DNA of 44,860 nucleotides, the filler included, from Jimgerdemannia flammicorona (lineage: Eukaryota), in assembly GCA_003990765.1 (NCBI GenBank). It is 2 parts of 2 records of this genome, joined end to end, with 100 filler letters (N's around TTAATTAATTAA, not from the genome) between each part and the next. Parts side by side here need not be neighbours in the genome. Positions count along the whole stretch, not along the records: positions 22,481 to 44,860 come from RBNJ01001291.1; 1 more part is not named here. One strand, 5' to 3'. A program made the translations under genes and the position numbers. This document shows, piece by piece, positions 14,146 to 44,860 of the stretch (position 1 is its first letter; every line of letters starts with the position of its first letter). The notes beneath the pieces were generated by a model. It was not told where the DNA came from. It was given only the letters and a program-made list of their open reading frames with translations, and made no database searches.

Positions 14146-14186
<41 letters not shown>

Positions 14187-14500
14187 AAATAAATAAATAA
14201 ATGAAAGAATCTGGTTTCCATTGTGTGCTTTTAAATGACATGTTTTAAGCCTTTACAGTTTGGTCGTCAGTGATATAAACTGGAGATGTTCTATCGGAAT
14301 GGCTGAACTTTCAATAATTCACAATCGTTGCAACAAATGCTTGGACGTCGATGACGTTGGCGGTTTGTTCGTCGAAGAAATGGCGCTGCCGCCTGGGTAT
14401 CCATCGGCCTGGCTGCGCATTTTGTTATTTGGTCACAAGTCTCTGCGCCACTTGTCTGAGAACATCCCTTGAAATCGTCAACCTAAATAAAAAACTAAAC

Positions 14501-17141: not shown

Positions 17142-17202
17142 GCCACTGTTCACCTTGTCCAGGAACATACCCTGAATCGTCAACTCAAATCAAAAACTAA
17201 AC

Positions 17203-22380: not shown

Positions 22381-22480
22381 NNNNNNNNNNNNNNNNNNNN
22401 NNNNNNNNNNNNNNNNNNNNNNNNTTAATTAATTAANNNNNNNNNNNNNNNNNNNNNNNNNNNNNNNNNNNNNNNNNNNN
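22381..22480. other. Artificial gap/linker: 44 N + TTAATTAATTAA + 44 N
   Basis: The 12-mer gives stop codons in all six frames and sits at the exact midpoint (22380+100+22380=44860). Confidence 0.95.
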
Positions 22481-23580
22481 TTTTTAATAGACTCATAGTC
22501 CTGCAGATTTTTATTGAAAGAGAACCTAGACTATATAGGCCAAAACCCTCCCCCACCACCCACTGAACAATATTCCTCCATTAACCTAAGCTACTAAATT
22601 ATCCAGCAGTCCCACTGCTCCAGCTATGCCTGTCAAACACTAGTTACATTGACCCCCATGACATAGACTAGACTTGTCTGCTCACCAGGGCTGGATCATC
22701 ATTTACATGTGAGAGCACACCTATACATCAGATCTAGCAGTACTGGGACTGAATAAAGAATAGCCTCTCAAACCCCAAAAGAAAGCCTAAGGTAAAGAAA
22801 AAACCCTCCAACTAACCAATAGAGAGCAAAGTGGATTCAAAGTAGGTGAGTAAAGGACTTATATGCAGAATCTTCTGCAAAGGACTTATATATGGGCTAG
22901 GGCCAGAAAAGATCCCACTCCCACTCCCCAAGCCTGTAGGCCTCAATCACATTGCCATATCAGCTCTCAGTTCCAGTTGGATACTGCTAAATGAGGAAAG
23001 TCCCACTCTCCAAGCCTGTGGGCCTCGATCATGTTACCATATCAGCTCCCAGTTCCAGTTGGGTATAGCCAGGACACTGGCCCCTACACTACCCCACCCC
23101 CTATCAGCCAATTGAAAGGCCCCACCAAAATATTGTCTGTCCCAGCCCTGATAACCACCCCCAGCCTGGCACCCTACTGGTTTACCATTATTGTCCTTCC
23201 TCCTATCTGTGATGACCATCTCCCCTCCCATCCTGACAATATCTGAAAAACAGTCACCTACACTAGAACCATGCTTGCCAGGAAGCTTGCCAAAGCCAGA
23301 GAGCCCCACCATAGGTACTGAGGACTTACAGGTAACCTATACTGAGCACTTAATGTCCAAGGTCAGCTGACTCTCTATGTAGCCCAAGACACACTGAGAC
23401 AGTACCTTGTTGGTGATGGCAAAAGGAAGAAGGCACCATACCAAAATAGATATACTCCAGATGCAGCTGAAGATACCAAAAACTATGAAAAAGTGGAGAA
23501 GATACTAATCCAACACTGATAAAGAAGTAACTCAACACTATTGCCCTCCTCCCACTATGCCCATATAGGTACAGCAAACC
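22481..23580 (-). mobile_element. Probable 3' end/UTR of a degenerate non-LTR retrotransposon on the minus strand
   Basis: G-rich on the minus strand like the neighbouring LINEs; minus-strand AATAAA near 22510-22515 shortly before an A-run at the contig edge; CpG-depleted. No diagnostic protein motif was confirmed. Confidence 0.4.
22920..23070. repeat. Direct repeat of about 68 bp with ~82-bp period
   Basis: cccactcYccaagcctgtRggcctcRatcaYRttRccatatcagctcYcagttccagttggRta occurs twice, differing by transitions. Confidence 0.85.
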
Positions 23581-23584
23581 AATC

Positions 23585-26500
23585 TGAGGTAGAGGGGATA
23601 ATAATAGGGGAAAGGGAACTCAGAAGGTTGTCTACCAAACTCTGTGACTGATAAGGTAGTGGAGAAAGGAGCAGAGAATTGGGAACATCTGCAAATAGTT
23701 CTCCAGAGTTCAAAGACTGAGGAGACAGTGAAGACTGAGGCAGCTAAGAGCCAGATGGAGGGAGTGGAGACAGCTGAGGTATCTTTCTTACAGCTGAGAG
23801 ATGTGGAGAGTTCTACTCATATACTGGTAACAGAGAAGTGGGCAGATAAGGAGAAGGTGGGAGAAGGGAGTTTTGAGAATATTACTGAGATAGTTCTAGA
23901 GACTCAGCTGGAGGATGATCAGATGGCAGGAGCTGTAAATATTCATTGGAGGTGCCTAGAGGCTGGTGAGGTGGTGAGGCTGGAGAAGATTACTGAGGAA
24001 GATGATCTAGTGAATATGGCCTCAGATATGTCAGCTGATAGAGAGATGCTTTAGGAACTGAGTAGGACCTCAAGGTCAGTCACTCCTAGGCCTCTAGTAA
24101 TGATAACTGATAGTTGGTATCAGGCAGTACTTGAGGAGCTTGCAGAGGAGGATATCAAGGAAGTAGATATATTTCATAGATCTTAGAAGGCTTGAGAGAG
24201 ATTTCTTAATATTATAATGTAAGGACTGAAGTTGGTGACAGTAATGGTGGCAGTACTGCTAGATGATGAGGAGTATAATATTGATGAGAGCCAGATGGCA
24301 GATATCAGGAAGGTGGCATTGGAGCAGGTGGAGGTATTTTGCAGAAATGTAAATAGAGTGTACATCTGGAGGGCTATCTGTGAGGAATAAAAGAAAATAA
24401 TCCATAGCAGGGCTGAGAAGGTAGTGGTGATTTCAGCAGAGCTTTAAACAAAATTTTTGATAATGATGAACAGTCTATATATATTATCTTTAAATGTTAA
24501 TAGGCTGTATGATAGAGTTAAGTGGTAGTGATTGTTTTGTTGGCTGAAAGTCAAGAGGTATGATGTAGTACTTCTTCAGGATGTTTGAGCTTATAGTGAG
24601 CAGGATTATATTGAGTAGAGTAGAGAATAGTATGGTGGTACTGGCTGGAATGAGTAGGTAGGCATCTTAGTGGGTGTTGGAAGAGAAGAGCTAGTGGAGG
24701 TGAAAATCTACAGAGATCAACTGGTATGGGTAGACTGAAAGGAAGAAAGGGTGATGGACTGATAGTGAGCTCTGTCTATCTTCTGGTAGTTGGCAGAGAG
24801 TGAAAGCAATGGGTGGAGGGTTGGCTGACATGGGAAGATCAGAAAGGGGTAGGGTTAGATATTTTGGGGGGAGACTTTAATATGGTGCATAACAGGATAC
24901 TAGATAGGTCTAATAGTGGAGTAGGTATAATAGTCTCAGCTGGGCTCACTCAGTAGCTCCAGGTTGAGAGAGATATGGGATTGGTGGATAGTATCTGATG
25001 ATGTCAAGGGGAGAAGCCTGGGCCCTTTACTCAGTGGCACTCTGTGGGCAAGAGTCTGGTTGGAACCAGAATTGACTGAATTCTGGTGGCTGAGGATTGG
25101 GGTAATGTACTGGATATTACAGGGGTATGGTGGTGCCCTTGGTCAGATCACTGGAGAGTGAAAGTATGTAGTAGATTTCAGATTATCAGTAGGGGTAAGA
25201 GTCACTGGTAGCTTAATGTAGCTCTTCTAAGAAGATAGGTAGAGTGGAAATGATTTGTGGAAATTGCAAGACAGGAGATATCATAGTAGAAGGAGAAAGG
25301 ATAGCTGATAATATAGTAGCAGGGTAAATTTAAATAGTTGGCAGATATCTATTGGTATAATGTTAGGGAGGTTGTCAGTAAGAAGTAGAAGAATAAGGAG
25401 AAGAGAGTTGAATGTGGACTGCAATAGCAGTTGAAGCTGATAGAAGGGGGGAACTTGTTAGGAGAAGAGTACTCCCAACTAGTAGTAGAGATGACTGAGT
25501 TGCAGCTAGACCTTAGGGGTGCTGAGGATAGAGTAGTGGATGGCCTGTTGACAAGGCTGTAGGCCAGGCAGCTAGAAGAAGAATAGTGGTCTATGAAGTA
25601 TTTATCAGGCATTTTAAAGGTTAGAAAGATATGATACAGCTGGGCCTCAGTGTTGTGAGAGAATGGCACTGAGGTTACTGGAATTGGAGAGATGCTGGGT
25701 GAGGTTTCTGGGCAATGGCAGGCTCTCTGACAGAATGAAGGGGGGCTAGTAGAGGGTGAGGTATTATAGGAGAATAATGACAATTTGGTGGGTAATTGGC
25801 CAGTAATAAATCCAAGATAGGTAGGGCAGTAATGGATATAATAACTCTGGAAGAGATGTTAGAGATGTTAGAGAAAGTGCAGACAGGTTCATCACCAGGG
25901 GAGGATGGGCTGCCTTGGGAATTCTGAAAAAAGTTCTGGGCCAAGTTCAGTATCTGGCTAGTAGAAATGGCATACTTTAAATTGAAGAAGAGTAGCTAGA
26001 TTGATAATAACTCCTTGGGGCTGATCTCTTAGCTATATAAGGAGAAGGAGATCAGCAGAAATAGTGGAATTGGTAGTCAATCATATTGCTGAATATAGAT
26101 AAGAAACTGGTGTCTAAGATTCTGGCTGGAAGATTGTAACAGTAAATTGGCAGACTAGTGGGTGAGGACCAGCAAGGCTTTAACAAAGAGAGATAAATTC
26201 GAGACAGCACAGCTTGGGTGCAGAATATTTTAGAGAGCTGTAGGAGCTGACAAGTGGATAGAAGGATGATTTTTTGGATCTGAAGAAGGTATATGATAGG
26301 GTGCAGTAGAATTATCTAGAGGCAGTAATACAGAAGACAGAGTTCAGTATAGTAGAGGCAGAGAGATTGATGGACTTAGTACATGACTGTAGAGTAGCTA
26401 TCTTAATGAATGGATAGAGTGGTCTGGAATTTACCCTGGGGAGAGGTGTGCCACAGGGTAATCCTCTCTCTCCCCTACTCTATATTCTCTCCTTGGAGCC

Positions 26501-27040
26501 TTTGCTGACTTGGCTGAAGAGATGGCTTATAGGACTATAAATGGAGAATGTGGTCTGGAAGCTAGGAGCATTCACTGATGATATGGTGGTTGGATTAGGC
26601 TGCTTGACAGATGTAGAATACCTATAGGAAGGGATTGGTCAGTATGAGAGATTGGCAAGAGTGAAATTGAACTGAGGCAAGTATGAGACAATGGAGTTAG
26701 ATACTAGCTTGGGAGAGAATAGGTGATTTGGACAAATAGTGGCTATGAGAAATGCTGTCTGATATTTAGATATTTGGTTTTTAGTATATGGGACAATATT
26801 ACTAAAGAAGTAGTAGTGTGATATAATACAGAAGTAGGAGGGGGTACTGACAGGTTAATCAGAGAGATACTTCTCCTTAATTAGGAGAGTAGTGGTTTTA
26901 AATATATATTGGTTGCCAAAGTTATAGTACTTGGAATACTATCTGGATTTTTCTAGATGGATGGTGCAGAGGCTGAAGAAGGTGGTGGAAGAATGGCTAT
27001 GGCAGAGAGGATAGTTATAAATTAGTTGAGAGACCTTCTG
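23585..27040 (+). mobile_element. Degenerate LINE (ORF1 tail plus APE endonuclease-RT ORF2 from ~24463; L1/Tx1-like), truncated
   Basis: ILSLNVN (24480), VVLLQD, GGDFN (~24867), SDH (~25143), SPGEDGLPWEF (~25890), DQQGF (~26167), RGVPQGNPLSPLLYILSLEPL (~26442), AFTDDM (~26568); many transition-derived stops. Confidence 0.9.
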
Positions 27041-27989
27041 AATAACAATCTAGATCAATGGCTTCAAGGTCTCTCTGGTCTCTTTGAAGGACTACTCATC
27101 CAAATAAATATCCCCAGACATAAGGATCAAGAACTCTACTTGGGTGGTCCCAACTGTATTATATAGAGAACCTCTATCTCACTATCTATACCAGTTTAAG
27201 AACCATTTGCAGATCTTATTGATTTCTCTATCCTAGATATTGAGCCATCAGTAACTACTCCTCTAACTACTAGTGGAGATAGCAATAATACTGAGAAGAA
27301 TTCCCTATCCTTTTCTCTCCTAGTTCTCAATTTTCAAATCAATGAGAATATTGATTTTTAAGGGGAAAAGAATATAATAAAATAAGTAACAAGTGAACAG
27401 ATGAGACACAATATATGATGAGCAATCATATGATCTGGTGATGATGTCATGATTGAGTACAATATATAACATATATAACAAATGATATAAATAATATAAA
27501 TGATGTAAATGATATAAATAAATAATATCTAGCTTATCTCTGGCAATTAGTACTACAGCAATTAGTACTATAGTAGCTGATTATTACCTAACAATAGAGG
27601 TTCTGATTACAAAGTATTCCTGATATCAAACTATCTGACAAAGGTTATGATCACAAATCTCACTATAGTTATCAAATTAGTCACTTATACTTAGTCAGAA
27701 ATTACAGACAAACTTGTATAAATACCCCCCAGTTTCTATTTGAAATAAAGCAGTTTTAGTTCAGTCCTTAATATAAGAATCAAGTTCCCCTCTATATATA
27801 TATATATTCCTGAGTCTTAGTAATGATATCTAAGTGACTTTAGTATTTCTGACTAAACTCCAGAAGTCTAGCTAACTTCTGCCAGAACTGAGACCAATAT
27901 ATAAATCACAAAGACTTAAGTAAACTCTAATTGAATCTAAATTCTAAGGTGAATTCAGTCTGTACATAGTAAAGAATAAGTCTCTTACA
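27041..27989 (+). mobile_element. 3' fragment of an LTR retrotransposon: ORF remnant, PPT (27360-27372), LTR (~27373-27989)
   Basis: Polypurine AAGGGGAAAAGAA, then TATAA (decayed TGTAA?) ... TATAAATACCCCC (~27717), AATAAA (~27744), ending CTTACA. No partner LTR in the window. Confidence 0.5.
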
Positions 27990-28835
27990 ACTATAGTTGA
28001 TAAGAAGAACACTGCTGCTATAACTACCTTTAAGCAAGTACTTCTTCATACTAAAGGCTTTTTGATATATATTATATACTAAGTCCCTAAGTAATACCTT
28101 ATTTCTCTAATTATCTAAAGGATAAGATAGGGTAGAAATAAGAGTTATTATACTATCTTCTATCTCTCTACTCTTTGGCCCCCATCAGCATTCATCCTTA
28201 CTGACTTATCTCAGTTCTCCTCTAGTATATTCTGCAGCTTATCTATCTTCTCTCTTCTAGTAGAGACCCTATACTGAACTTGGGCTCCCTCTACTATCAC
28301 CTCATCTTTAGCTACCTCACACTACTCCTGAGCTCTGTTCTCTCCCAATGTCTTCTCTTGAGTCCTTCTCTCCACACTACCCCAGGTACTAGCTCATGAC
28401 CCAGCTCTCTCAGTAGAGTCTACTTTCTCTTTACTCTCTTCTAAATTTACCAACAAATCTTTCTATCATTATTTCCAACAGCCTGATCCAGTCACACCTT
28501 CTTATTATTAACCATCTCTATTATCATCCTAGCCTCAAACTTCTTTTAAGCCAATCTTCTCCTTTTACAATACTAGTCAAATCCTTCAGTACCTCTAGCA
28601 AATCCTCCTCCTTCTTTAGTATCTCCTTTAACCTCAAGACCTTGTACTCTACTGGATTTTACTTCAATGTTGCCAGCCAGTCTCTCTCTTTTTCAGTATT
28701 CTTCTCTGCCAGCTATACCCTGATATTCACATCTCATATCCTGAACTCTATATCCTCCTAGACCCAGAAGCTGACATCTACAATATCTTTATACTCCTTG
28801 ATAGTATCTACAATAAACTTTCTGGCCACTATTTG
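27990..28835 (-). mobile_element. Minus-strand ORF1 fragment of the same LINE family
   Basis: Minus translation YKDIVDVSFWV*EDIEFRI*DVNIRV*LAEK...DWLATL aligns with LINE ORF1 at 40300-40440 (YSEVVDIGFQI*KGTLFQIKDVDIRLRLAGK...DWPSIL). Confidence 0.7.
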
Positions 28836-28859
28836 GTCTTGATGTTTATTTTTTTACTG

Positions 28860-30387
28860 GCTAGACTGATTAGTAAGATAGTAATTATAGAGTATCTCTG
28901 GATAAATCTTTAGTAGTATTTTACAATATTCAAGAAGTACTAGAGTAGTTAAGGGTAGTAGAGATAGAAATATTCTAGAGAGCTAATATCTTTTAGAGAT
29001 TCACATAGATACCTTTGGCAAAGATAATATATTCTAGATATTTTATCTAGTCTTAGTAGAACTTGTATTTTCTCATCTTAGTATAGAACTAGTATTCTTA
29101 TAATAGAGTTAATATCTGCCTGAGATAGATATAGTATTGTTCTACTATTTTACTATAAATCAGTATATTATCAATATATACTAAGATATAAATATTGAGC
29201 AATGGTCCAAAGATATTATTTATTAGATTTTGGAAGATTTCTGGTATATTAATCAAGTTAAAAGATATAACTTAAAACTAATAGATTTTAAAATATATTT
29301 AGAAAACTATTTTCTTAATATACTTTTTATCAATGAGGATCTGGTAGTATTTATTTCACAAGTCTAGTAGCTAGAATATCTTTATAATAGTATTTCTTTA
29401 CTATTATAGTAATTATATTCTTTAAGTTAATAATTCTTGATATTAATGACTTAAAGGTACTTATATCAGATATCTGTAGCTTAAGGAAGTGGCTGTCTTA
29501 ATGCCTAAGTACTATTTATTATACTTCTAATTGATCTAGTCTCCTTCTGATAGACTTGGATAACAATTTAGCAATTATGGACTTTAATTCTTTAAAATCT
29601 AAGTCTTTTAGTATATTCTTTTTGGATATAGTCTGGCTCCGAGAATTATATTTATATTCTTCAGAGTTTAGTATTTATAAAGTTCAGGACATCTAATTTT
29701 AGATGTAGTCTTTCTATTGGAGATCATTCTAAAACTTATTTATATATTATAGACTTAAGACTTAATTGTTCTTTTATTTAATATTCTGTAAATTCTTGAG
29801 TCATTTCTCTAGAGATATTTATATATTTTGAAGGTCTTTACATATTGACTAACTATTGATTAAAAGATATAAGACAGAAAGTTACTAGAAATAATATAAA
29901 AGTTACACTATAATGATATTATTATGAAGTCATAATAATACTATTTAATGATATTATTTTTATATGCTATTTATAAAGTAATGTTCTAGATTTTCAACTA
30001 AGACTTATGATGTAGTGTTTTATTATATCATGAAGTAGTAACAGACTTCTCTGAAAGAAGATAAGACTTCTCCCAGAGTCTTAGATTCAGATGATATATA
30101 TAATACTAAACTCATATTGAATAATACAGAAATTCTCTATAGCCAGATATTTATAGGTATCTGGACCTGTGAAGTGAGTGCTTAAAATAGACTAATAAGT
30201 CTATTGAAGACTTTATTCTCATATAGTCATATATCATTATTATAGTATTCTTATAGATTAAAGTCATTTATAAGATGTAGCTCAATTTGACTTATTAATT
30301 GATCACTAAGGCTATCAATTTCTGCAGGAGTTACTCCTCTTATACCACTAATAGCATAGAGTATTCTATGGAGTAATTAATAGATAT
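28860..30387 (-). mobile_element. Old, heavily hypermutated Ty3/Gypsy pol (RT) remnant, host of the nested dUTPase element; probably continues at 39051-~39400
   Basis: Minus translation LDL*NKYYQI...VISFNLINIPEIFQ (decayed VMPFGLTNAP; ~29242-29271), LVYIDNILIYS (decayed YIDD; ~29155-29184), KYLEYII, FLNIVKYY*RFI. Confidence 0.82.
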
Positions 30388-31917
30388 TGTCACATAGTAG
30401 TTACTGAGTCTTTTAAATATGTCAGATTCTCTTCAAGGTGTATCTCTTAGACTAACTCAAGTTTATTATAAGCAAGTTTTTATTAGAGTGTCTTTCCAAG
30501 GTCTTATAGTTCTCAAACTTCTATCTTTAAACTGTCTTATTATCTCTTTAGATTACTTGCAAGAGTTTATATATAAGTGAACTTGACTGACTTTATTTCG
30601 AAGGAAATAAGAGGAGTATTTATATAAAATATAATTTAATGATTACTAAGATATAAAGCTAAATATAAATTCCAATAATCAAATAAAATACTGGAACACA
30701 GAAAACTGCCAAGTTCCAGTTTAAGTATAGATAGTTGTACAGGTTCAGGATGCTAGTATAATTTCAGTAATATAGAAAAAGAGTACTGGAATAATTCTGA
30801 GTCATATAAGGTCAGAATACCAGTAGAGGAATAGCTGTTATATGGAAAAAGGATACTAGCAGAATTCTGTGTCACCAAGAACTTAGAGCAGAAAGTTCAG
30901 GACCATGGGGGCTTTATCCTTATCACTGTTCTCAAAGGAGATAAGATTCACAAATATTTTGTCTATCTTATCATATATGTCATGTGAGATGATGTCATTG
31001 CCAATGACATCATCACATTTAGTGGGGGCTCTCCAATATATGAGGTTCTCTTCCATAAAATAGAGAACAAATGTAGGGTCTTGGGGAGGTCTGATTTAGA
31101 TGCTGGGGCCTTAGAATGTAGAGATCAATTCTTATAGGAATTGATCTGAGTTATCCTGAAGGATGGGATGCCAGAAGTCTTCTACTTCATCACTATTAAG
31201 AGTGATAGTGGACTAGACTTCTATAGCCACCATGACTTCTAGTGCATTGATACAGTGGGCTGACAGATCTCTGAAGTCTGAGACTCTGATATACTCTAAG
31301 TTGAAGATCAACCATAGTGCATATCTGAAGATCTGATAAATCTTCTTGGTTATTCTTATTTCACATATATCTATGGAAGTGGAATCTTGTAGCTCTTGAG
31401 GACTGGCTTGAGGAAATTTCTGGCAGAGGAGGTTTCCTATTTTATATTCTTGTCATATCTGGAGGTATTTGGTAACAATGGTAATTCTTGTTTCCATTTT
31501 ATAGCAGTAGAGAATATAATGATAAGAGTCACCAGTACTCAGGTTGATACTAGGAGTCCTTGTGGTGAAGGTTCTTATGACTCTTTAGATGTCTTAGAAT
31601 ATTCTTTTCTAGACTGAGGGGCCTTGATCATTCCTTGACCTTGAGGTTTGGCAAGCAGCAGATATTTCATTTGTGATAAGTCTTTGAGCTATTTTGAGAT
31701 TGGTGGGTCTTGTTGAGTTGCTGCTACTGCAGTTCCTTGATTCTTCTTTTATATTTCTCAAGATACCTATATTATAGTCATAATGACTCACAGTTGGTCA
31801 TCATTACTCATCTCATAGCCTAGATGAGTCATGTTATATGATCTTCTTCTGATCTAGTAGCTTACAAAGAATTACTGTCTCTTGTGCTGATGTCATTATT
31901 CTGAGGTCACCATTATA
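30388..31917 (-). repeat. 3' LTR (~1530 bp) of the dUTPase-Gypsy element
   Basis: Collinear with 37546-39050; plus strand starts TGTCA; PPT AGGAGGAAGA (minus strand) at 31918-31927; minus-strand TATAAATA near 30617-30624. Confidence 0.92.
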
Positions 31918-32226
31918 TCTTCCTCCTGAATAAGGATCTTCTTGAATGTCCTTATTCATTGGTCCAGTCTTGAAAAATTTGCTAATCTCATAACCTCTGA
32001 CAGAGGGTTGAAAAGTGGTATTTATAGACTGATGTCTTCCTTATATATTTTGGTGTGATAGTGAAGGATCACTTCCTTCATATAGAGTAAGGACCTAATT
32101 CTGATCTTATCCAATCAGTTGATAGTTCAAACTCCTCTGACTTTGAAAGTCTTATGGATGAGTAGTTGCTAGTATTGTATCTCTTAGAGAATAGTCCAGA
32201 CAGATTGTCTGCTAGTTATAAGACAT
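30680..32226 (-). pseudogene. Putative accessory ORF3 (~460-515 codons) spanning the post-integrase region, PPT and U3 of the LTR
   Basis: One frame without frameshift from ATG 32226. Many stops in one LTR are CAA/CAG/TGG in the other, and the only indel seen in the main overlap is 33 nt (in frame). The 3' end is uncertain (30838 or ~30680). Confidence 0.6.
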
Positions 32227-34979
32227 GCTGTTATGATTTGCAGACTAAAACCTTGTAGGTAGTCATCATATTTTACTTCTCTTATAGGTTCATGGTACTT
32301 CTTAAGTCTGTTCCTATGTATCATAGTAGGCAGTATAGTCCCTGAGAGTTTTTTAAGCCAGAAGGTAGTTCTCTTGATATCTTGCATATAGAAGAGTTCT
32401 TCCCATTTGGGCTCCAGTTTTTGCAACTATGAGGCTTCTATACAGTAGGTTCTTTTCTCTGATCTGGATGGGTTCTAGGGTCTTGTAATTCTTTTCTGTA
32501 TTCTTTCTTGTCAGTGTTTGTGACTTAATAATATAATCTTCAGCCTTCTTTCTGATTTGGTATAGTCTCCAGATTTCTGAGTCAATCTATCTCCAAGTTA
32601 GGTCTAGATTTGGAGCTTAGGTTCCATTGGAATCTTCTTCTCTGAAGAGCAGTTCTCTTGGGGTAAAGTGTGTACTCTGTGGTCATATATCTCATAGGAT
32701 AGAGAGGGCAGTTGGGAGGTAGTTATTCCAATTCTCATATGTGTCTGAGATCTTTGCCAGGATGTTCTTGAGGGTCTTGTTGGTTCTCTCTATCTGTTAA
32801 TTTCCTTAAGGGTGGTACACAGTTGTCTTGATGTGCTGAATCTTGTATTTCTGATACATTATCTCATGAAATCCATTGACAAATTCTGTGCCATGGTCTG
32901 TAGTAATTTGCTTTGGTGTCTTGTAGTAACAGATGATTTCTTAGTAGGAAGTTAGCTATAGAGAGAGCATTGGCTTCTTGTAATACTCCTGCTTCTATTC
33001 ATTTGGTAAAGAGATCTACAATAACTATAATATAGCAATTTCCTGATAGTATTACTGGTAGTGGCTCAATAATATCTATTGTAATATAGTAGAAGAGGAT
33101 AGGCTCAATTCTTGATGACCCAGATGTTTGGTCTTGCTGATCTTTTTTCTGTTTTTGGTACTTATCACACCCTTTGACAAATTGATGCAGATTTTCTTCC
33201 ATCTTGGGCCACTATATGGTTCTTCTTATCTTGTCATATGTATTGGTTCCTCCTAAGTATCCTTGTTCATATACTTTCTTCATTACTTGATACTTCTTAT
33301 ATTCAGGTATTATAAGCTTTCCTCCTTTTCTGAGTATAGTGTTGTCTAGTTCAAACTATTTTCAAGTTCAATTGATGATGATAATTGTCCAGGGTTTGAG
33401 GTGGTTGGGTATTTTCCACTGCTCAAGATAGCTGATTAATCTATAGTATAACTCCTTATTCATATTGAATAGTCTTGATGGAAGTGTTTTGAAGTATCCT
33501 TGAGAGTGCATCAGTATTGGTGTTGGTTCTTTCTGAGCAGTACTTGACAGTACAGTCATACTCTTGCAGTCTGTAGATCTATCTGATATATATTCCTTTA
33601 GGATTCAGAGTGTGTAATAGTCAGATAAGAGCAGAATAGTCTGTTTAAATAGTGAAGTATTTTCTAGCTAGATAGTAGTAAAACTTATCTACTGCCCAAA
33701 CTACTGCTAAGTATTTGAGCTTACATAACTTGTAGTTCTGTTGCTCTGTAAGTACCTCAGCTTGTATAGGAGATAACATATTTATATCTATCTTTCTTCT
33801 GAGCTAGGACTGCTCTAAGTCCTATAGCACTTGCATCTGTCTGCAAGATGAACTCTAGATTCCAATCTGGTCTTCTGAGGATAGGTGCTTGGATCAATCT
33901 GATCTTGAGTTCATTGAAGGTTTCTTGGTATTTCTTAGTCTATTCAAATTTGGTCTCTTTCTTCAGTAGCTCATAGATTGGTGCTGCAATGTTGGAGTAT
34001 CCTTTGATGAATCTTCTGTAGTAGGAGGCCAGTCCAAGGAAGGCATAGACTTCTGTAGTTGTTCTGGGTCTTGGGTAGGCTGCAATAGCCTCAATCTTCA
34101 TAGAGTCTGTGTGAATTCCAGTCTGATTGATGAGGTGTCCTAGGTAGGCAATTTCCTGAGCTACAAACTTACACTTCTTGGGCTTGATGTAGAGGTCATG
34201 CTCCTTGAGCTTCTTGAGGACTAGCTGTATATAGTTGATATGTTTCTGTGCAATATTGCTGGATGATCATATCATCAACATAGAAAGAGCCATTTTCTAA
34301 TTTCATTGCTGAAGACTCTGTTCATAATTTACTGAAAACTTGCTGAGGCATTGTACATTTCAAATGGTATTTGCAGATAGATATAGGTGGTATCAGGTGT
34401 GATGAAGGCTGATTTTTCACTGGTATCTTGAGTGAGATCAATCTGATGGAAGTCTGAGAACAGATCTAAGGTAGTGTAGTATTTGGCTTCACTTTCAAGA
34501 GTGGTAAGGATTTCTTGAATATTTGGCAAGGGTTGTCTATCCTTCTTGGTGATTGCATTGAGCTTCCTGTAGTCAATGCAGAGTCTTGAGGCAAACTCTT
34601 CAGGCTTGCTTCCTTTCTTTAGAGTAAGGACAATGAGTGAAGCCTAGAGACTGATAGCTTGCTTGATGATTCTGGCTTCTTCCATTTTCTTGAGTTCTGC
34701 TTGCAGCCATTCTCTGTAGGCAGGTGGTATAGATCTGGCTTTCTGGTAGATGAGCTTGGTATTGCCAGTATCAACTTTATGGTAGTACTTGGGTTCTTGA
34801 TTATGGATATTCCTAAAGTCTGTAGCAAGTACTTCTTCATTCTAGTGCAGGATCTTAAGAAGTTGTTCTTCCAGGAGAAAGTTTTCTCCAATGATATATA
34901 TGTGCTTATTCTGGTCCTTGTCTTTCTTGTACTCAAGTTCAGTAATCTTAGTGGTAGTATAGGCTCCTCTTCCAGTGAT

Positions 34980-35330
34980 CTTAGGCTTCTTGATTTCATG
35001 GATCAGTATCTAGCCAATCCTATTATGCTTCTTGACTTCAAATAGAGTGGTGGGGTTGCTATTCCTGACTATGAGAAAGATCTCACTAGTATAATTAGGG
35101 TTAATTATCTCTCCTTTAACTGAGATTTTGCTTTTGGCCAGACTGCTCCTGGTCTTGATAATTCTAGCATAGTTCTCTGGCAACTTGACTCCAATTCTGA
35201 TATCAAGTAGAGTGGTGGTCTGTGGTTTGAGGGTAGTATCTTGAATGCTGACAAAATCCATTCCTATGGCTCCTTTAGTCTTATATTCTGGGATCTTAGC
35301 TTTGGGGTAAAACTTCTTGACCTTGAGGGT
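34980..35330 (-). pseudogene. dUTPase domain within Gypsy pol, between protease and RT
   Basis: PKI...KTKGAIGMDF (motif 1), TRSSLAK (motif 2), KGEIINPNYTSEI (decayed GGIIDPDYTGEI, motif 3), HNRIG (DRIAQ-like motif 4). Confidence 0.85.
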
Positions 35331-37524
35331 GATGTCTGGTTCTTGTTCCTCCTCATCATTACTGTCAGCTTGCAGCTCTGGGGGCTGGTCATCTTTTTCA
35401 GCTTTCCTTTTTACTTCAGCAGCTTCTTGCCTATACTTCTGTTAGTGGATTTATCTGACTTTACTGATATAAGACCAGCAGTTATTCAGGTGTTCAGAGC
35501 AGTACATCCTAGTACTATGGGGGTATCTTCCTTGAGGGGTATAATTATTGATGATCTTGTTGTACCACTGCTCATCTGTGAGCTTGGGTGTCTTGTTCTT
35601 ATTCTTGTTCACTTAGTGCATAAAGACTTCTGTGTCCTCTTTATTTCCTTTCTCTATATATGATAGAACTCCTTTGTGGACAATGATAGAGACTTGTATC
35701 TTTCTTCCTCTATAGTTGATCTATATCTTCTGGGCATTGAGATCAATGATGGCCTTAGCCTTGTGAAGCCATTGGTTGCCAATGAGAATATCATAATTAG
35801 TGGTACTTGTAACAATCATATCTACTGAGATAGTAGCTCCTCCTATCTTGATGGGGACTTCTTGGATTTTGCTAAAGAGGGTAGCTTATATACCATCTGC
35901 TGTAATATAGACTATCTTGGTAGACTCTTCAATGTCTTAGCCTAGGCAGTCAATTGTTTTCTTACTCATGAGGCATTCTCTAGCACCAGTATCAATGATG
36001 GCATCAAAGATATAATCTTCAATCTGATATGGAGTATAGGCTGATGTCTTGTGCTGATCTTCAGATTCTTTATCTGAGTTTTCAGATTCTTCTTGTGTAT
36101 TGTGAGCTTCTACAATCTTATACTCTTGATTCTTAGCAGTAGTTGCAAGTCTTACTCTCAACTGCTATCTGAAGGCAGGGACTTTAGCTAGCTATCCAAA
36201 AGTAGCATTGACCTTCTGTTTCTTAAGGTTCTTATAGATATCATACTGGTGGATCTTGGTCTTACACAGCTTCTGTTCCTTCTTGCTTTCAATTTCTCCT
36301 GAGACTGAAGTAGTATCTTCAATAATTTGGTAGGTAGCTTCATCTAACTCTATATCTTGATCAATCTCCTTGGGTTGGGTCTTGCTTTGGATAGTGACAG
36401 CTGAGGTCTTCTTCAATCTTCCAACTGGCTTACTGTTGCTCTTCTTATCATAAGGCTTAGATCAGGTTCTGGTACCTTCAGTAGTAGGGTAGAATTTGAG
36501 CTCTTTATAGTATTCTTCATCATCAGTATCACTGATCTCCTCAATGACTACTATATTGGTTTATTCTCTGGTTCTGATAGCATTACTTGATTGGGCTTTA
36601 TGTCTTGTTTTGGTCATGCAACTCTTTGTATAGTGGCCTTCTTTTCTACATCTGAAGTATATAATAATGTATTCTTCTATAGTAGCTACAAATCTCTGTA
36701 CTGGTCTCTTATTGGTACTTTGGACTTCTCTAACAATATCACTAAGGTATATAGTTATCTCAGCAAACTACTTGGCAAGTTTCTCCACTGGGTCAGCTTT
36801 GGCTACCTTGGAGGTAGGTGGAGATAGTTGTCTATTTACAACTATAGTAGATATGATACTAGTTGGCTTTGATAGCTCTATCTTGATGTCAGTTATTTTC
36901 TCTATTAAGTGTTTAGTAAGGTGTCTGGTAGTCCAATATCTCTGTGCAAAGACCACTTTCTGATCAAGAGTCAGTACAGCTGGGGTAGACTGGATTGCTA
37001 GAGTAATTTCAGGGTAAACTTCTTTAAGGAAGATTGAATCTGCTATTTGTTCCTTGAGGCAGTCATCATAGCCAGCCAAGACAATCTGATGGCAGATTTG
37101 AGTATAGAATGAGTTGGGGTCTTTACCAAGTTTCTGGCAAATAGTATTGAGTTGATTCTTGAGAGCTTGCTTGATCTCTTTGGTATAGTATATAGTTCTG
37201 AGGAAGGTCTTTATGTTGGTAAGTCTGGCTGTACCAGCATTAGCAATAGTGGCTATATTGAACTTATATATCTCTGGTAGGTCCTCTGAGGCTGACTGGT
37301 AGAAGAGCCAATTGTGTATCCACATTGAAGACTCATACAGTGGCAAATTGTTTAAAGTCTTCAATGAAGGTCAGGATTGACTCCTCAGTAGTATATCTAT
37401 AAAATGTGAGGGGATACATTTCTATCTTATCTTAAATTCTTACAGAGGTAACTCTTGTAGTCAGAGTAGTTGTTGTGGTAGTTATTTATTTTTTAGCTTG
37501 AAAGTGAGGGATTTGTCTTGAATC

Positions 37525-37542
37525 ATCAGCTAATGGGCACCA
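37525..37542 (-). promoter_or_regulatory. Primer binding site (TGGTGCCCATTAGCTGAT)
   Basis: A TGG-starting motif 3 nt downstream of the 5' LTR, complementary to a tRNA 3' end ...GGGCACCA; tRNA identity not assigned. Confidence 0.75.
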
Positions 37543-37545
37543 AGT

Positions 37546-39050
37546 TGTCATATAGTGAACACTGAGTCTTTCAAATATATCAGATTCTCTTCAAGGTATA
37601 TCTCTTAGACTAACTCAAGTTTGTTATAAGTAAGTTCTTATTGGAGTATCTTCCCAAGGTCTTATAGTCCTCAAACTTCTTATCTTTAAACTGTCTTGTT
37701 ATCTCTTTAGATTACTTATAAGAGATTGTATATAAGTAAACTTGACTGACTTTATTTTGACAGAAATCAAAGGAGTATTTATACAAAATATAATTCAATG
37801 GTTGCTAAGATATAAAGCTAAATATAAATTCCAATAACTAAATAAAATACTGGAATCTGGAATACAGAAGACTACCAAGTTTCAGTGTCAGCACAGATGG
37901 TTGCACAGGTTCAGGATATTGGTATAATTTCAGTGATACAGGAAAAGGGTACTGAAATAATTCTGAGTCACACAAGGTCAGAATGCTAGTAGAGGAATAG
38001 CTGTTACATGGGAAAAGGATGCTGGCAGAATTCTGTGTCACCAAGAACTCAGAGCAGAAAGTTCAAGACTATGGGGGCTTCATCCTCATCACTGTCCTCA
38101 AAGAAGATGAGGTCTATGAACATTTCATCTGTCTCATTATATATATCATATGGAATGATGTCATTGCTGATAATGTCATCACATTTGGCAGAAGCTCTTC
38201 AATCTATGAGGTTCTCTTCTACAAAATAGAAAACAAATATGAGGTCTTGAGGAGGTCTAATCTGAATACTGGGACCTTGAAATATGGAGATCAATTCTTA
38301 CAAGAATTGATCTGAGTTGTCCTAGAGGATGAGATGCCAGAAGTCTTCTACTTTATCACTATTGAGAGTGATAGTGGACTGGACTTCTGTAGCCACTATG
38401 GCTTCTAGTACATTGATACAGGTATACTTCAAGTTAGAGATCAATCATAGTATATGCCTGAAGATCTGATGAATCTTCTTAGCTGTCCTTATTTCATGTA
38501 TATCTATGGGAGTGGCATCTTATAGCTCTTGAGGGCTGGCTTGAGGGAATTTCCAGCAGAGGAGGTTTCCTATTTCATATTCTTACTACATCTGAAGATA
38601 TTTAGTAGCAATGGTGATTCTTGTTTCCATTTCATAGTAGTAGAGAATATAATAATAAGGGTCACCTATATTTAGGTTGACACTAGGAGTCCTTGTGGTG
38701 CAGGTCCTTATGGCTCTTTGGATGTCTTGGAACATCCTTTCTTAGACTGAGAGACCTTAGTAGTTCCTTGACCTTGAGATTTGGTGAGTAGTAGGCATTT
38801 TGTTTGTGGTAAGTCTTTGAGCTATTTTGAGATTAGTGGGTCTTGTTGAGTTGCTGCTACTGCAGTTCTTTAATCTTTATTTTATATTTCTCAAGATATC
38901 TATACTGTAGTCACAATGACTCACAATTAGTCATTATTACTCATCTTATAGCCTGAGTGAGTCATGCTGTATTATCTCCTTCTGATCTGATAGCTTATAT
39001 GGAATTACTGTCTCTTGTGCTAATGTCATTATTCTGAGGTCACTATTATA
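37546..39050 (-). repeat. 5' LTR (~1505 bp) of the dUTPase-Gypsy element
   Basis: Collinear with 30388-31917, with a 33-nt deletion near 38420 and mostly transition differences. Confidence 0.92.
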
Positions 39051-39440
39051 ATATAAACTAAAATACTCTATCTGAAAATAGAGACATTATATTCATCTAT
39101 AATCTCTGATAGAGTCAAGCTACTATTTACTAAAAGTCTATCAGTCTGGTAGTTTCTTAGTATTTATAAGTGTCTTATGATTGATAGTATTCTTATAGAA
39201 ATCTTATCAGTAGCTTCTAAAAACTACTTTATATTATAAGTGTCAAGATCAATAGATTTCTAGTTATATTGATACTGATCAAATATTGCTTTCCAGAGAA
39301 CTTCATAGATATATTCAGAAGGTGAGAGTATGATTTATTTATGTTTTAGTTTTGTTTTTGAGGAGTGTCTATGAGTTTGCATAGCTATTGTTTATTTGGT
39401 TGATTATTTCTCAGAGCTAATTTGTGGGGTATTTATTTGT

Positions 39441-42400
39441 TTATAATTCATATTATACAAACTTCAGGTGATACTTTTCAACATAATTCAGAGAAAAGAT
39501 ACTAGCAATATGTCTTTGAGCAAGAGTTCTGACAGGTGTACTGGGTTGGGTAGATTAGGGGCTTTTGGTTGGTAGTATATAGAGAGGGGTTATGGCCTGG
39601 AGATGTAGTACAAATGGTAGAGAAGGCTCTGAAGAGGGACTAGTATCTAGTGAGAAGGGAGGCAGTTCTAGACCCCTGAGCTTTGCTGATAAGGTGAAGA
39701 GGGGAGGTTGGCCAATGAGTGCTAGAGCTAGAGTAGCTGAGGAGAAAGGCAAGGCTAGCCTAGAGAAGGCAGAAGGCCCTCTACCCAGGGAAAAAAGTAG
39801 AGGGGCTAGAGAAACTATAACTGGGGGCAGTGGTGTAACTACTGATAGTGATATAATAGAGAATTAGAAAAAAAAAAAGAGATGTATTAGCTGATAGTAG
39901 TGCTATATAGAGAGATCATCAGAGGTAGAGAGATCTGGTCAATGATATAACAGGCCTAGTGGTGGCCCTATTACTTAAGAAATTGATTTTGGAGTTTGCA
40001 GTCACATTGTACTTCAGAGGCTTAGCAGTGACAGTAAAGCTAGTATTAGGGTTAAGCTTGAAGTAGATGGCTGGTGCTGCCTTGGTGAAGTTCTTAAAGG
40101 GGCTTGAGGGGGTTGAGGTAGGCTTTAAGGAGGCTGCCTCCTTGGAGGAGGTATTGAAGACAGGGATTACTGTGAGAGAGATGGTAGTTCTGATAGCTCA
40201 CTATCTGAGGTGAGACTCTAGAGTGGTCTAGCTTTTAGTGAAGAGAGTGTCTATGGTGACAACTATTGAGATAAGAAGAAGGGTAGAGGAAGTTATGGCT
40301 GAGTATAGTGAGGTAGTTGATATTGGCTTTCAGATCTAAAAGGGGACTTTATTCCAGATAAAAGATGTGGATATAAGGCTCAGGCTGGCTGGAAAGGAGG
40401 CTATAGAGAAGCTATGAGACTGGCCTTCTATATTGATATGGGGTACATTTATACAAGATGATGAGAGTGAAAGGGAGTGTGAAAGAGGAGAAGAATCTGG
40501 TAGAGGTACTAGAGAAGTTTGGTGAGATAGTGGAGTGGTGGACCAAGATATGGTAGATATATAGACTCAATATATCTGGAAGTAGTGGATGGAAAGTGTA
40601 TTCAGGTGAATAAGGGGTAGTGAGAGAGGGCTCAGAGGTATAAGAAGCAGAAAGAGTTACTGGCTAGTTTGGAGGTAAAGGAGAAGACATTACCCAGCTC
40701 TAATAGGGCTGCTAGGAGTACTAGAGAGAGTGTCTGAGTAGATGATGGTATGAGGAGGAGTGTGAAGGCTGGAGATGGGGGCCAGGAGACAAGAGATCAG
40801 GCTCTCTATGATGATAGTATACTGGAGATGTAGGAGGAGAGCAAGTATTTGGAAGGGCAATCTGGAGCCATATAGCTAAAGACTGGTGAGAATGTGGGGA
40901 TGTTGGGGACTTGCCATGTTATTTAGAGTACCTGAGATAGCAAGTGGGGGGTAGGTAGTTGAGGTTAGAGAGGATGAGCTGGTGGATATTTCTGAAGAGA
41001 AGTGGGATGAGTCAGCAAGTACTAGGGCAGATACTATGATGCTAGAGGCTGGTAGGCCAGTGATCTCTGGGGGTAAGGAGATTGGTGCCCTGCAGTGAAT
41101 GTGCTGGGTGATGAATAACTTATAGCTGAGGAGTTAGAAGATGTGGACTTATATGTTATCAGTAAGAAGCACTGGATAAGAATGCTGCAGAGAGATGATG
41201 TTGTGGGGGCTCTGGTAACAGAGGTGCTGGCAGTATATCTGAATAAGAAGAGGTATGCAGTAGATGATATGAGAGAGGTAGAGATGGCTATAGCTACTAG
41301 AGTACATATAGTCTTTTGGTAGAAACAGCAACATGGACTGAAAATCTGGTAAGAGGCTTACTTGGAATACTGAAAGAAGATGGAGAAGAAGGATGATACA
41401 GCAATGGCTGAGCTTTTGATTGAACTGGAGGCTAAGCAGATCAAGGGGGAGGAGACTGCTGCAGAACATAAATTGGACTTAGCCAGAGAGGAGACAAATA
41501 TAGAGCTATAAAGAGAATACTTCTATATTAATATTATTTCTCTATAAATAGTACAACTAACATTTTCTCATTAAATGTAAATAGCTTGAGAGGTTCTGAG
41601 AGATGGCATAACATTTTTATTTGGTTAAAAAGATTAGAAGCTGATCTCTTTCTTTTGCAGAATATATGATGTGAGGAGAACTTTGATCAACAGGAGTAGA
41701 TGAGAGAATGGGGGAGGGGGCTGCTGTCTAGAATAACAAAGTTGGGCTTCTGGTATAGAAAGAATAAGATGAAATATGTGGAAACAGAAATTGGAGAGAT
41801 CAGCTGATTTGGGGTAAATGGTATTATTCTGAGTAGAAGCCAATTATAGTTGGATCTTATTACTGCCTGGCAGATAGGAGTGAGCATATAGAGTAGATTA
41901 GTGGTCTTTTAAATAGTGGAGTCCTTATAGAGGTAAAGTAGATATATTTGGAGGAGACTTCAACATAGTTCACATAGCACAGTTGGATAGGACAGATAGA
42001 GAGAGGAGGACAGAAGGCAGAAGTAGTGGTCTGGAGAGTTGGGAGGAGGTGGAGCAACTTGGATCCTTAGTGGATACTAGTCAAGCAATGTGGAGAAATA
42101 GGAGAGTTTATACTCATTGAGTGAGAGACCTTGAAACTAAGATTGACTGAGTATTGATAGCTGATTGCTAGAGTCTATATCTGGAGGTAGAGTGGTGTCT
42201 ATGGTCAGACCATTGGGGCTTATTAGGGTATGGGTAGTTTGGGGAAAGTGAGGATGAGCTTATACATTGGTATCTCAATTCCTCTTTATTGGCTGAGATA
42301 GAGCTGTAGAACACTTGGGCTGAGGATTGTATATAGTTGAGTCTGAGTGGATACTCCAGTGGATATTTAATGAGTGAGGTTAAAGAAGACTGCTAGAGTT

Positions 42401-44545
42401 TACTAGGGTGAGACTGGCAGGGTAGTGGAAAGATAGCAGAGGAGGAGAGAGACTTGGGCCTCTGCTAGGTTGGCCTGGCTTCAAGAAAAATGAGCTGATC
42501 TTTTGGCCTTGGAGGGGGTTGAGGATTGGAGGTTAATGTGAGCAAAGCTAGAGATTGTTGAGTTATAACAGGTGCTGATGGAAGAGAAGGAGAATCTTAT
42601 AAAGAAATGAATGCAAGGCTGTACTAGCAGGGACTTGAGGAAGGGGAGAGGCCCTCTAAGTACCTCTTAAGACTTCTTTAGGTGAGGAAGGTGATGCAGA
42701 GGTGAGAGGGGGTTTTGGATTCAGAGGACCTGCTGGTATATGGTTTGCAAAATATTTTAGGCTCTCTGAAGGGGAGGTGGAGTGGTCTATAGAGTGAGGA
42801 GGAGGGCAGAGCTGATGCTGCTACCATTGAATACTCTTTGGAGAATTGGCACCCACTACAAGTAGATGGTCTTGACAGTTTGGTACTGCTAGTTCAGAAG
42901 GAGGAGATTCATTAGGTTCTTGCTACAACTAAGCAGAGCACTACACCAGAAGAGGATGGTCTGTCCTAGAACTTTTAGAAGAAGATGGTGGACCTGAGGT
43001 GCTGGAAGAGATGATGGCACTTTGTAACTCTATACTATAGTCAGAGAGAGCAGAATCTGGGGCTGATAGTACTGTTGTATAAGAATAAGAGCAGGAGAGA
43101 GAATTGAAAAAACTAGTAACTGATTATACTTCTGGATATAGACAGAAAGATAGTCACTAAGATAATTATTGTGAGACTATAGAAGGTGGCCCAGCAAGTA
43201 TTGGGTGAGGAGCAGTAGGGCTTCATTGGGGGCCAGCTCATTTGGAATAGCACAGCCTGGGTTCATGACATTATTGAGAGATCTGAGCTTATGGGCTAAA
43301 TGGGAGATTGGTCTTCCTGGATCAGAAGAAGGCCTATAATCATGTCTAAAGAGTCTGATTGATAAAGGTGCTCAATAGGATTAGAGTCTCTCAGTAGTTC
43401 CAAGTGTTAATAATCAGCCTACTGAAAGAGAGTAGGGCAGTGCTCATGTGCAATAATTATCAAGGGGTACTATTTCCTCTAGATAGGGGTGTTCCCCAGA
43501 GTGACCTTCTGTCTCTTATTTTGTATGCTCTTTTCTTAGAGCCTTTGATGGATAGGATTTGTTGCAGAGTGGTGAAGCTCTTGGTGTTCAGAATTGTCTA
43601 GAAGGTTGGGGCCTTTGCAGATGACATGGTGGTTGGCCTTAGTTCTATTGCAGATATGAGAATACTTAAGGAGATAGTGGAATAGTATGAGGTGCACTCT
43701 GAGACAAGACTCAACTGGCATAAGTGTGAAACAATAGTTTTGAGTAATAAACTAGTTGGAAGAGATGTTATTGGAACAATTGTCCCTACTAGAGATGCTA
43801 TATAGTACCTGGATATTTTATTTTTGGTTTATGGGTCAGTCCTGTCTAGAACTTGGTAAGAGCAGTAGGTAGTTATTTGGGAGAAGGCTCTGTGGAGCTG
43901 AGATGGCCATTACATCCTATTGATAGACTGTATTTCAATCCTGAATATCTACTGGCTTCTGAAGCTATAATATTTGGCTTATTATTTAGACTTTCCAACC
44001 TGAGTGGTGAAGAGGCTGTTGAAGCTGGCCAAGAACTAGATCTGGGCTGAGAGACAGAGTCAGGTTAGTTGGAATATTCTGTCATTGTCAGTAGATAGAG
44101 AAGATCTTGAGCTAGTTGACTTCCTGAAGAGGCTATACTGTCTGAGAGTATGGTGGCTGAAGAGAGCTGTGGAACTGAGGAGAGAAGGCTGGGTTCCTCT
44201 GATGCAGAAGGTCTGGAAGTTGAGATTTTCACCAAGGGGCTCCTCAGGGGATTTACTGTCTTTAGTTGTTCTTAGGGGCAGTGGGCACATATAATATAGG
44301 GACTTCTGGTAGAGAGTAGTTGATAGAATACACTATATTGGTCTTTGCTGGTATAGTACTAAGGGAGATATACTGTGGGGTCTAGTGATGTAGAGATGAG
44401 ATTACATACTACTGAGAGGTACTCCTCTAATTGACTTTAATATTGGTAATGGGGTAGAGTACTAGAGAGAGTTAGGACAGGATGTATGACATAGTGGCTA
44501 GCAGATAGTGGGTATTAGTAAAGAGTGGAACTGGCAACAAACATC
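39441..44545 (+). mobile_element. Near full-length degenerate LINE (ORF1 from ATG 39510; APE-RT ORF2 from ~41545), interrupted at its 3' end
   Basis: ORF1 MSLSKSSDR...SFADKVKRGGWPM; ORF2 IFSLNVN (~41562), GGDFN (~41950), SDH (~42204), TPEEDGL (~42943), FLDQKKAY (~43314), RGVPQSDLLSLILYALFLEPL (~43485), AFADDM (~43611). Confidence 0.9.
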
Positions 44546-44549
44546 TCTC

Positions 44550-44860
44550 TCCACTACAATTCATGTTACACACACTTTTCAACACACTTTCGAAGCATTT
44601 ATTGGAGAAAGATACTAAGGCAATGTCAACCAGCAAGCAAGCCGACGCACGTACTAGGTCGGGTGGACCTGGGGCCTTCGACTGGCAGACTGTTGGGAGA
44701 GGGTATGGATTGGGGATGGAGTCTTTCGGTGGCTCGAGTGGGCAGGGCGGCTCAGGTAGTAGAGGTGGCACTGGTGGGGGGGCTGGAGGGAAGCAGGGGA
44801 GGAGCTTTGCAGACACGCTGAGGGGTGGGGGCTGGCCGATGGGTACTTGTGGTGGACCGG
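44550..44860 (+). mobile_element. 5' end of a young, unmutated LINE of the same family; ORF1 from ATG 44623 open to the window end
   Basis: MSTSKQADARTRSGGPGAFDWQTVGRGYGLGM...SFADTLRGGGWPM aligns with the decayed ORF1 at 39510 (MSLSKSSDRCTGLGRLGAFGW*YIERGYGLEM...SFADKVKRGGWPM). The 5' UTR is also homologous, and CpGs reappear abruptly. Confidence 0.8.

Follow-up and report, generated by a model that had tools for sequence, protein, structure and literature searches.

A nest of dead retrotransposons that has lost nearly all of its CpG dinucleotides through C-to-T change was identified in the right half of a 44,860-nt stretch of DNA (the window) from the genome assembly of Jimgerdemannia flammicorona. 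The window consists of two contigs joined end to end, and the hypermutated segment spans positions 22481-44545 of the right contig. This segment had previously been described as carrying C-to-T hypermutation that resembles repeat-induced point mutation (RIP) and is restricted to transposable elements (TEs). The hypermutation itself was confirmed, and the earlier interpretation of it is partly supported. The mechanism that we favor, with slightly better than even confidence, is methylation-coupled deamination that is targeted to TEs, acts continuously, and follows a DIM-2-like context preference of CG > CA > CC >> CT, rather than RIP triggered by duplication.

Exactly four CpGs are observed in 22481-44545 (positions 23026, 26200, 29640, and 30599), and 774 are expected from the base composition (C 3367, G 5073). 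The approximately four CpGs in ~22 kb that were counted by eye in the initial annotation are thus correct. CpG reappears from position 44591, inside the start of a younger long interspersed nuclear element (LINE3), with 12 occurrences in the last 270 nt. The bulk observed/expected ratios (o/e) of the segment are 1.05, 1.01, and 1.03 for CpA, TpG, and TpA, respectively, and CpA/TpG is therefore not depleted. CpT and ApG are strongly over-represented, with o/e values of 1.64 and 1.43. The strand-symmetric o/e for CpT reaches 1.42-1.66 in the classified elements, an unclassified 5' segment has 1.30, and T follows 35% to 59% of the surviving C across the elements of the right contig. Bulk CpA and TpG probably remain near expectation because the decay of CpG refills the CpA/TpG pool. 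The proposed decay of CpA/TpG to TpA is accordingly visible in alignments only and is absent from the bulk composition. When the elements are taken as a series, CpG is lost in all of them, and toward the oldest relic the GC content drops from 46% to 29% while T follows a growing share of the surviving C (35% to 59%). On this gradient the process looks continuous, with CpG >> CpA ~ CpC >> CpT.

The sister long terminal repeats (LTRs) of a Ty3/gypsy element, located at 30387-31917 and 37545-39050 on the minus strand, were compared over 1498 aligned bases with an identity of 85.4%. The comparison gave 205 transitions and 14 transversions, for a transition/transversion ratio (ts/tv) of 14.6. The LTR differences are thus almost all transitions (205/219), as had been noted, and the commonest is CA/TA (equivalent to TG/TA). 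The C/T differences were pooled over both strands and grouped by the 3' neighbor. CpA differs at 109 sites, with 122 conserved C (share 0.47); CpC (CC/TC) differs at 38 sites, with 55 conserved (0.41); CpT (CT/TT) differs at 17 sites, with 203 conserved (0.08); and CpG (CG/TG) differs at a single site, with none conserved. The remaining transitions fall outside these four contexts, the neighbor itself being variable. Fisher tests gave p = 4e-22 for CpA versus CpT and p = 2e-11 for CpC versus CpT. The decay is little affected by the 5' neighbor or by the +2 base. Plant-type CHG methylation was considered and rejected, with differences at 2/31 CTG sites and at 15/45 CAG sites. The claim that C-to-T change occurs in several contexts therefore stands, and to it are added two features that had been missed, namely CpC decay as strong as that of CpA and the sparing of CpT.

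Each of the two LTR copies carries about half of the derived states (109 vs 96), and the strands are affected evenly as well (47, 62, 39, 57). No strand tracts were detected among the LTR mutations (runs test z of 1.3 and 1.6). When independent decay in each LTR is assumed, the per-copy decay probabilities are 0.31 for CpA, 0.26 for CpC, and 0.04 for CpT. These values correspond to 0.37, 0.30, and 0.04 as -ln(1-p), and the value for transversions is 0.0047 per site. The decay of CpG is essentially complete, with one CpG surviving in both copies together. Nine TG/CA doublets between the LTRs are the footprint of CpGs that were struck on one strand in one copy and on the other strand in its sister. 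From these doublets, each LTR would have contained ~35-40 CpGs at insertion, and the decay of CpG would have proceeded at ~900 times the per-site transversion rate. The raw LTR divergence of 14.6%, compared with 0.93% for transversions, overstates the age of the insertion about five-fold.

The polarity of the change was established with P0128, an intact protein of 514 aa (JGI/IMG record) that was the sole close relative found by homology search with the dUTPase region. P0128 aligns in one frame to the minus strand at 34332-35819, and 395/496 codons are identical. C>T/G>A alone accounts for 85 of the 101 replacements, and 16 require other changes. The C>T/G>A replacements include E>K (13), D>N (9), A>T (6), V>I (6), P>L (6), Q>stop (4), and others. 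Contexts were counted only at sites where C>T/G>A would alter the protein. The mutated and retained sites are 41 and 115 for CpA (0.26), 25 and 98 for CpC (0.20), 14 and 3 for CpG, and 5 and 145 for CpT (0.03). The three retained CpGs are an artefact of the reconstruction, as the region now has no CpG. The order of the contexts is identical on each strand, and on the sense strand of the gypsy element 63 G>A and 23 C>T events were counted. The scan of metagenomes for the DNA of P0128 returned only loci of 38-42% identity (L001-L003), which were not used.

The spectrum was also read in a second class of element. LINE2 (39420-44545, plus strand) was compared with the reverse transcriptase (RT) fragment P0129, to which 104/169 codons are identical. 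The ratios of mutated to retained sites are 17/44 for CpA, 17/45 for CpC, 6/1 for CpG, and 4/38 for CpT (p = 0.019; 169 codons), and 39 of the 65 replacements are explained by C>T/G>A only. Other LINE references gave the same direction with p = 0.17 (P0133) and p = 0.57 (P0194). The reference P0132 gave p = 0.010, yet 69/107 replacements in that alignment need other changes. Two further comparisons were set aside. LINE1 and LINE2 share only ~60% DNA identity and were dropped for spectra. The 5' end of LINE2 is too divergent from the start of LINE3 (133 differences, 66 of them transversions), and its uninformative context values (CpA 0.31, CpC 0.29, CpG 0.53, CpT 0.44) were not used.

Gene paralogs were used as controls. 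These are five pairs of BTB-SPRY paralogs and one noncoding pair, with 719-2283 aligned nt and 81-94% identity, all of which lie on the left contig and not on the right contig. The control pairs have ts/tv values of 1.6-2.4, the four contexts agree within about two-fold, and 25-95 CpG pairs are conserved in each. The C-to-T hypermutation, with a ts/tv of 14.6 in the LTRs, therefore lies well above the background given by these paralogs. The transversion divergence is 1.9-7.4% in the controls and 0.93% in the LTRs. The gypsy insertion is thus younger on the transversion clock, yet all of its CpGs are gone. Since the controls are unbiased at higher transversion divergence, ordinary neutral decay is ruled out, and since tandem duplicates of 1.6-2.4 kb with 84-94% identity are untouched, duplication alone is not the trigger. 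The restriction to TEs that had been claimed holds in that these paralogs are spared, although the comparison is made with another contig. The only boundary within the right contig (~44.55 kb) lies between two LINEs, one old and one young, and does not divide TE from gene sequence.

Under methylation-coupled deamination, TE heterochromatin would be densely methylated at cytosines, in both CG and non-CG contexts, by enzymes of the DNMT1/DIM-2 class. The resulting 5-methylcytosine (5mC) would then deaminate, either spontaneously or as promoted by the methyltransferase. This would produce strand-symmetric, context-dependent C-to-T change after insertion that accumulates continuously with the age of the element. 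The trigger would not be sequence duplication, unlike that of premeiotic RIP. The context order CG > CA > CC >> CT was found in three comparisons (LTRs, P0128, and P0129), in which mutation serves as a proxy for methylation. In the TEs of Zymoseptoria tritici, Dim2-dependent 5mC is reported at 43-61% for CG, 10-22% for CA, 3-8% for CC, and <0.01% for CT (PMC8016269). The agreement between the mutation order found here and this 5mC order is counted in favor of methylation-coupled deamination. The decay of CpA and CpC exceeds that of CpT ~10-fold in the LTRs and against P0128, so CG-only maintenance methylation would be insufficient. Dim2 is also reported to drive a mitotic C>T mutator in the TEs of Z. 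tritici (Moeller et al. 2021, PMC8016269). The likenesses to that system, as it is described there, are the targeting of TEs and heterochromatin, for which meiosis is not needed in Z. tritici, the CG > CA > CC order, and the formation of TA from CA. Z. tritici is, however, an ascomycete in which Dim2 is known, whereas a comparable enzyme is presumed here.

Several points weigh against this assignment. Measured against the transversion clock, the loss of CpG is extreme (by the estimated ~900 times) and is faster than expected for the spontaneous deamination of 5mC. The LINE replicate is weak, with p = 0.019 and a reference, P0129, that is only 62% identical, and the comparison of LINE1 with P0129 (74/169 codons identical) goes in the same direction without significance (p = 0.20). 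All of the data come from one contig (n = 1), and its organism of origin is presumed. The Dim2-linked mutator of Zymoseptoria is described as almost CA-only, with 98% of the new mutations at CA and CG spared (PMC8016269), whereas CpG is extinct in the present segment and the decay of CpC about equals that of CpA. In addition, DIM-2 of Neurospora crassa is said to prefer CpT (PMC13297926, PMC8016269), which is opposite to the sparing of CpT observed here. The very fast loss of CpG may leave room for an enzymatic mutator. A tentative extension, which we hold to be doubtful, is that Endogonales possess an active, enzyme-driven cytosine mutator that is targeted to TEs, acts at CpG, CpA, and CpC but not at CpT, needs no duplication as a trigger, and possibly operates in vegetative nuclei.

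A true RIP-like defense, in which an enzyme of the RID/Masc1 type or another enzyme senses repeats, perhaps premeiotically, and deaminates CpG, CpA, and CpC but not CpT, is considered unlikely. In its favor, the ts/tv of 14.6 and a CpG loss close to saturation despite few transversions point to a very fast process, every affected sequence is a repeat, the oldest relic passes the composite RIP index, and hints of RIP outside Dikarya are reported for Zoophthora (PMC11105155). As in the RIP of Neurospora and other Pezizomycotina, C>T/G>A changes dominate on both strands and in both copies, the TEs are interrupted by stops, and the composition drifts toward AT. The RIP indices were evaluated with cut-offs of >=1.1 for product, <=0.75-0.9 for substrate, and >0 for composite, as listed in PMC6714961. 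The values for 22481-44545 are 1.05, 1.27, and -0.21, respectively, each on the wrong side of its canonical cut-off. The composite index is >0 in 6/22 1-kb windows, mainly at 27.5-30.5 kb, and the oldest relic (27501-30386) is the sole part that clearly passes it, with values of +0.19 to +0.47. The substrate index probably stays high because the decay of CpG refills CpA/TpG.

Other features also set the segment apart from canonical RIP. CpG is hit first, the decay of CpC keeps pace with that of CpA, and CpT is spared; together with the failed indices, these features argue against a CpA-biased RIP. That RIP in Neurospora has length and identity thresholds is the background to the test with duplicated genes. 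The tandem gene duplicates of 1.6-2.4 kb with 84-94% identity are unaffected, the 5' end of LINE3 that adjoins the dead LINE2 retains its CpGs, the gradient of decay follows the age of the elements, and there are no strand tracts in the LTRs. RID is moreover described as limited to Ascomycota in PMC13297926. Of the two processes that had been proposed jointly, a methylation-coupled and a RIP-like one, the former fits better, and the latter is disfavored by the unmutated gene duplicates and LINE3 start.

Less probable still is that the right contig comes from another organism in a field fruiting body, for example a dikaryan with known RIP or Dim2, in which case nothing new would follow for Mucoromycota. 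The halves of the window are unlinked contigs, the assembly is reported to derive from field-collected fruiting bodies (PMC10386755), and an ascomycete Dim2 shows the same order of contexts. An exact look-up matched 0 of 10 open reading frames from the right contig, and its nearest TE proteins all come from environmental records. The caveat that the taxon had been read from the other half of the window is therefore valid and graver than it was made to appear. The genome of J. flammicorona is, however, described as ~240 Mb with >77% repeats, mostly Ty3/gypsy (PMC10386755), and a contig made purely of TEs is thus expected for most of the assembly. The equal lengths of the two contigs also suggest that they share one length-sorted assembly. 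The segment also fails the canonical ascomycete RIP indices, and CTG is spared like other CpT (2/31), which argues against plant-type CHG methylation. A Mucoromycota origin, as proposed earlier, is established for the left contig by the Rho1 exons described below, and the right contig presumably comes from the same fungus.

It is very improbable that an APOBEC-like deaminase edited the retroelement complementary DNA (cDNA) during reverse transcription, before integration. All of the affected sequences are retroelements, and the sense strand of the gypsy element carries 63 G>A versus 23 C>T events. Such editing is nevertheless contradicted by the LTR differences, because the 205 transitions comprise C>T and G>A in both copies and thus record damage to both strands after integration. 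The specificity is also set by the 3' rather than the 5' neighbor, and the context order is equal on both strands. Neutral decay with a normal transition bias and no special process, for which the age and the many stops of the elements could be cited, has a negligible probability and is refuted, provided that the left contig is the appropriate background, by controls (including the noncoding pair) that keep their CpGs, a ts/tv of 1.6-2.4, and flat contexts at equal or higher transversion divergence, by the 4 CpGs found versus 774 expected, and by Fisher p values down to 4e-22.

Dead retrotransposons are nested in the right contig: LINEs in two copies, a gypsy element that retains its pair of LTRs, and remnants of older gypsy and LINE elements. 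The first part, at 22481-23600, is an unclassified 5' segment with a GC content of 46%, one CpG (o/e 0.02), and T after 35% of the surviving C; it is the part of the right contig least decayed at non-CpG sites. A direct repeat of 65 nt is present at 22919-22983 and 23001-23065 with a spacing of 82 nt and 88% identity. The surviving CpG at 23026 lies in the second copy of this repeat, and the first copy has CA opposite. LINE1, a degenerate non-LTR retrotransposon on the plus strand, extends over 23601-27500 (approximate ends) with a CpG o/e of 0.01. Its portion at 24481-27028 matches LINE2 at 41562-44071 (blastn and tblastx), and the ~60% DNA identity between the two refers to the RT region.

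The oldest material, at 27501-30386 on the minus strand, is a gypsy-type RT relic with an inverted LINE fragment (~28579-28796). It has a GC content of 29%, o/e values of 0.75 for CpA and 1.66 for CpT, and 59% of its C precede T. The Pfam domain RVT_1 was matched at 29026-29382 (minus) with 36.9 bits versus a cut-off of 29.6. The decayed RT strings that had been reported, ISFNLINIP and YIDNIL, are present within this match at 29242-29268 and 29161-29178 (minus), respectively.

The gypsy element follows. In the orientation of the element, 30387-31917 is the 3' LTR and 37545-39050 is the 5' LTR, and the two are 83% identical over 1539 columns. The LTR termini are TGTCA...TTATA. The flanks read ATAT/ATAT (or GATAT/AATAT), and this short repeat may be a target-site duplication. 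The internal region (31918-37544, minus strand) has many stops and no CpG. Pfam matches were obtained for RVP_2, dUTPase, RVT_1, RT_RNaseH, RT_RNaseH_2, and Integrase_H2C2. The element is assigned to Ty3/gypsy as the two LTRs flank protease, RT, RNase H, and integrase, in that order, on the minus strand. The dUTPase is located between the protease and the RT in pol (Pfam dUTPase, E = 1e-13). Directly after the dUTPase, a deletion of 18 residues sets this copy apart from P0128.

LINE2, also a degenerate non-LTR retrotransposon, contains no CpG. Its RT is at ~43308-43740, with the RVT_1 match in frame 3 at residues 1303-1446, and its G-rich, ORF1-like start aligns with LINE3 from ~39442. LINE3 (44546-44860, plus strand) is the 5' end (~315 nt) of a younger LINE copy that lies head-to-tail after LINE2 and is cut at the contig end. 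The start of LINE3 is unmutated, with a GC content of 61% and a CpG o/e of 0.48 for the 12 CpGs in 270 nt. The position of this start directly after LINE2 (44513-44860) may result from LINE insertion in tandem or from insertion targeted to 3' ends. The LINE sense strands (23601-27500 and 39420-44860) show a skew of G over C of +0.42 to +0.43. A mutational asymmetry was rejected as the source of this skew; since the unmutated LINE3 start carries an equal skew, it is a native property of the LINE lineage.

The two contigs are joined by an artificial six-frame-stop linker at 22381-22480, of the type used for concatenating contigs, which has no biology. Read directly, it consists of N44, TTAATTAATTAA, and N44, with the N runs at 22381-22424 and 22437-22480. 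The pieces on either side are exactly 22,380 nt each, and as they are separate contigs, features across 22381-22480 are without physical linkage. The left contig belongs to J. flammicorona (Endogonales, Mucoromycotina). It carries a Rho1 GTPase gene at 4743-6060 (minus strand), the exons of which are 100%, 98%, 91%, and 100% identical to P0008 (RHO1, J. flammicorona), with 155/155 and 17/17 residues matching in the 100% exons. There are 1355 CpGs in the left contig (o/e 1.06), the CpT o/e is 0.86, and T is found after 22% of C. The control array at 11045-21331 (plus strand) contains four intact BTB+SPRY genes and one fragment, as determined with Pfam (BTB and SPRY), self-blast, and substitution spectra. 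The tandem units have mutual identities of 84-94%, normal CpG, and unbiased substitutions. The genes seem to be intronless, with open reading frames of 446-483 aa, and the truncated copy is at ~13.3-14.1 kb. The nearest proteins have 47% identity, the best among named relatives is an Endogone sp. protein with 35%, and the array looks like a lineage-specific expansion from these sequence comparisons. An open frame of 644 aa is also present at 6704-8638 (plus strand) with a GC content of 55-60%, for which the CUE and DMA-motif matches are sub-threshold only.

Among the closest systems outside Ascomycota, TE-directed CG methylation is reported for Rhizophagus (PMC8647823). In Phycomyces, the only member of Mucoromycotina for which DIM2, DNMT1, and 5mC on TEs are known, TEs are described as methylated at CG and CHH and not at CHG (PMC11258239), which speaks for methylation-coupled deamination. 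As in the decay of methylated CG of the DNMT1/DNMT5 type in Basidiomycota, Rhizophagus, and animals, CpG is depleted in TEs and normal in genes. Unlike in CG-only decay, the depletion here is near total (o/e 0.01) and there is the ~10-fold excess of CpA/CpC over CpT. The TEs of Pucciniomycotina, which are also non-ascomycete, show a RIP-like, CpG-centered hypermutation at TpCpG (Horns et al. 2012, PMC3318451). In contrast to the pattern given there, no 5' T is required here, as ACG, CCG, and GCG are lost too, and there are strong non-CpG targets. RIP signatures are stated to be undetected in Mucoromycotina (PMC8647823, citing Venice 2020), and RIP-like k-mer enrichment is presented as unique to Ascomycota (PMC12543289). 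The literature covered, which did not include Chang et al. 2019 or Venice et al. 2020, contained no description of hypermutated TEs or of 5mC in Endogonales. The phenomenon is best filed as a methylation-associated, RIP-like TE hypermutation in a lineage and with a context profile not described before.

If this assignment is correct, mutational genome defense extends to an early-diverging, plant-symbiotic lineage, the Endogonales. Screens that use indices or k-mers can miss such hypermutation, and LTR dating in the genome of J. flammicorona needs a hypermutation-aware clock. From the order CG > CA > CC >> CT, concrete and testable expectations follow for the methylome and for the DNA methyltransferase responsible. 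Should Endogonales indeed possess an active cytosine mutator, it would be missed by the standard RIP indices, which would explain the surveys that report no RIP in Mucoromycotina, and it would be a means of keeping retroelements dead in a genome of ~240 Mb with >77% repeats.

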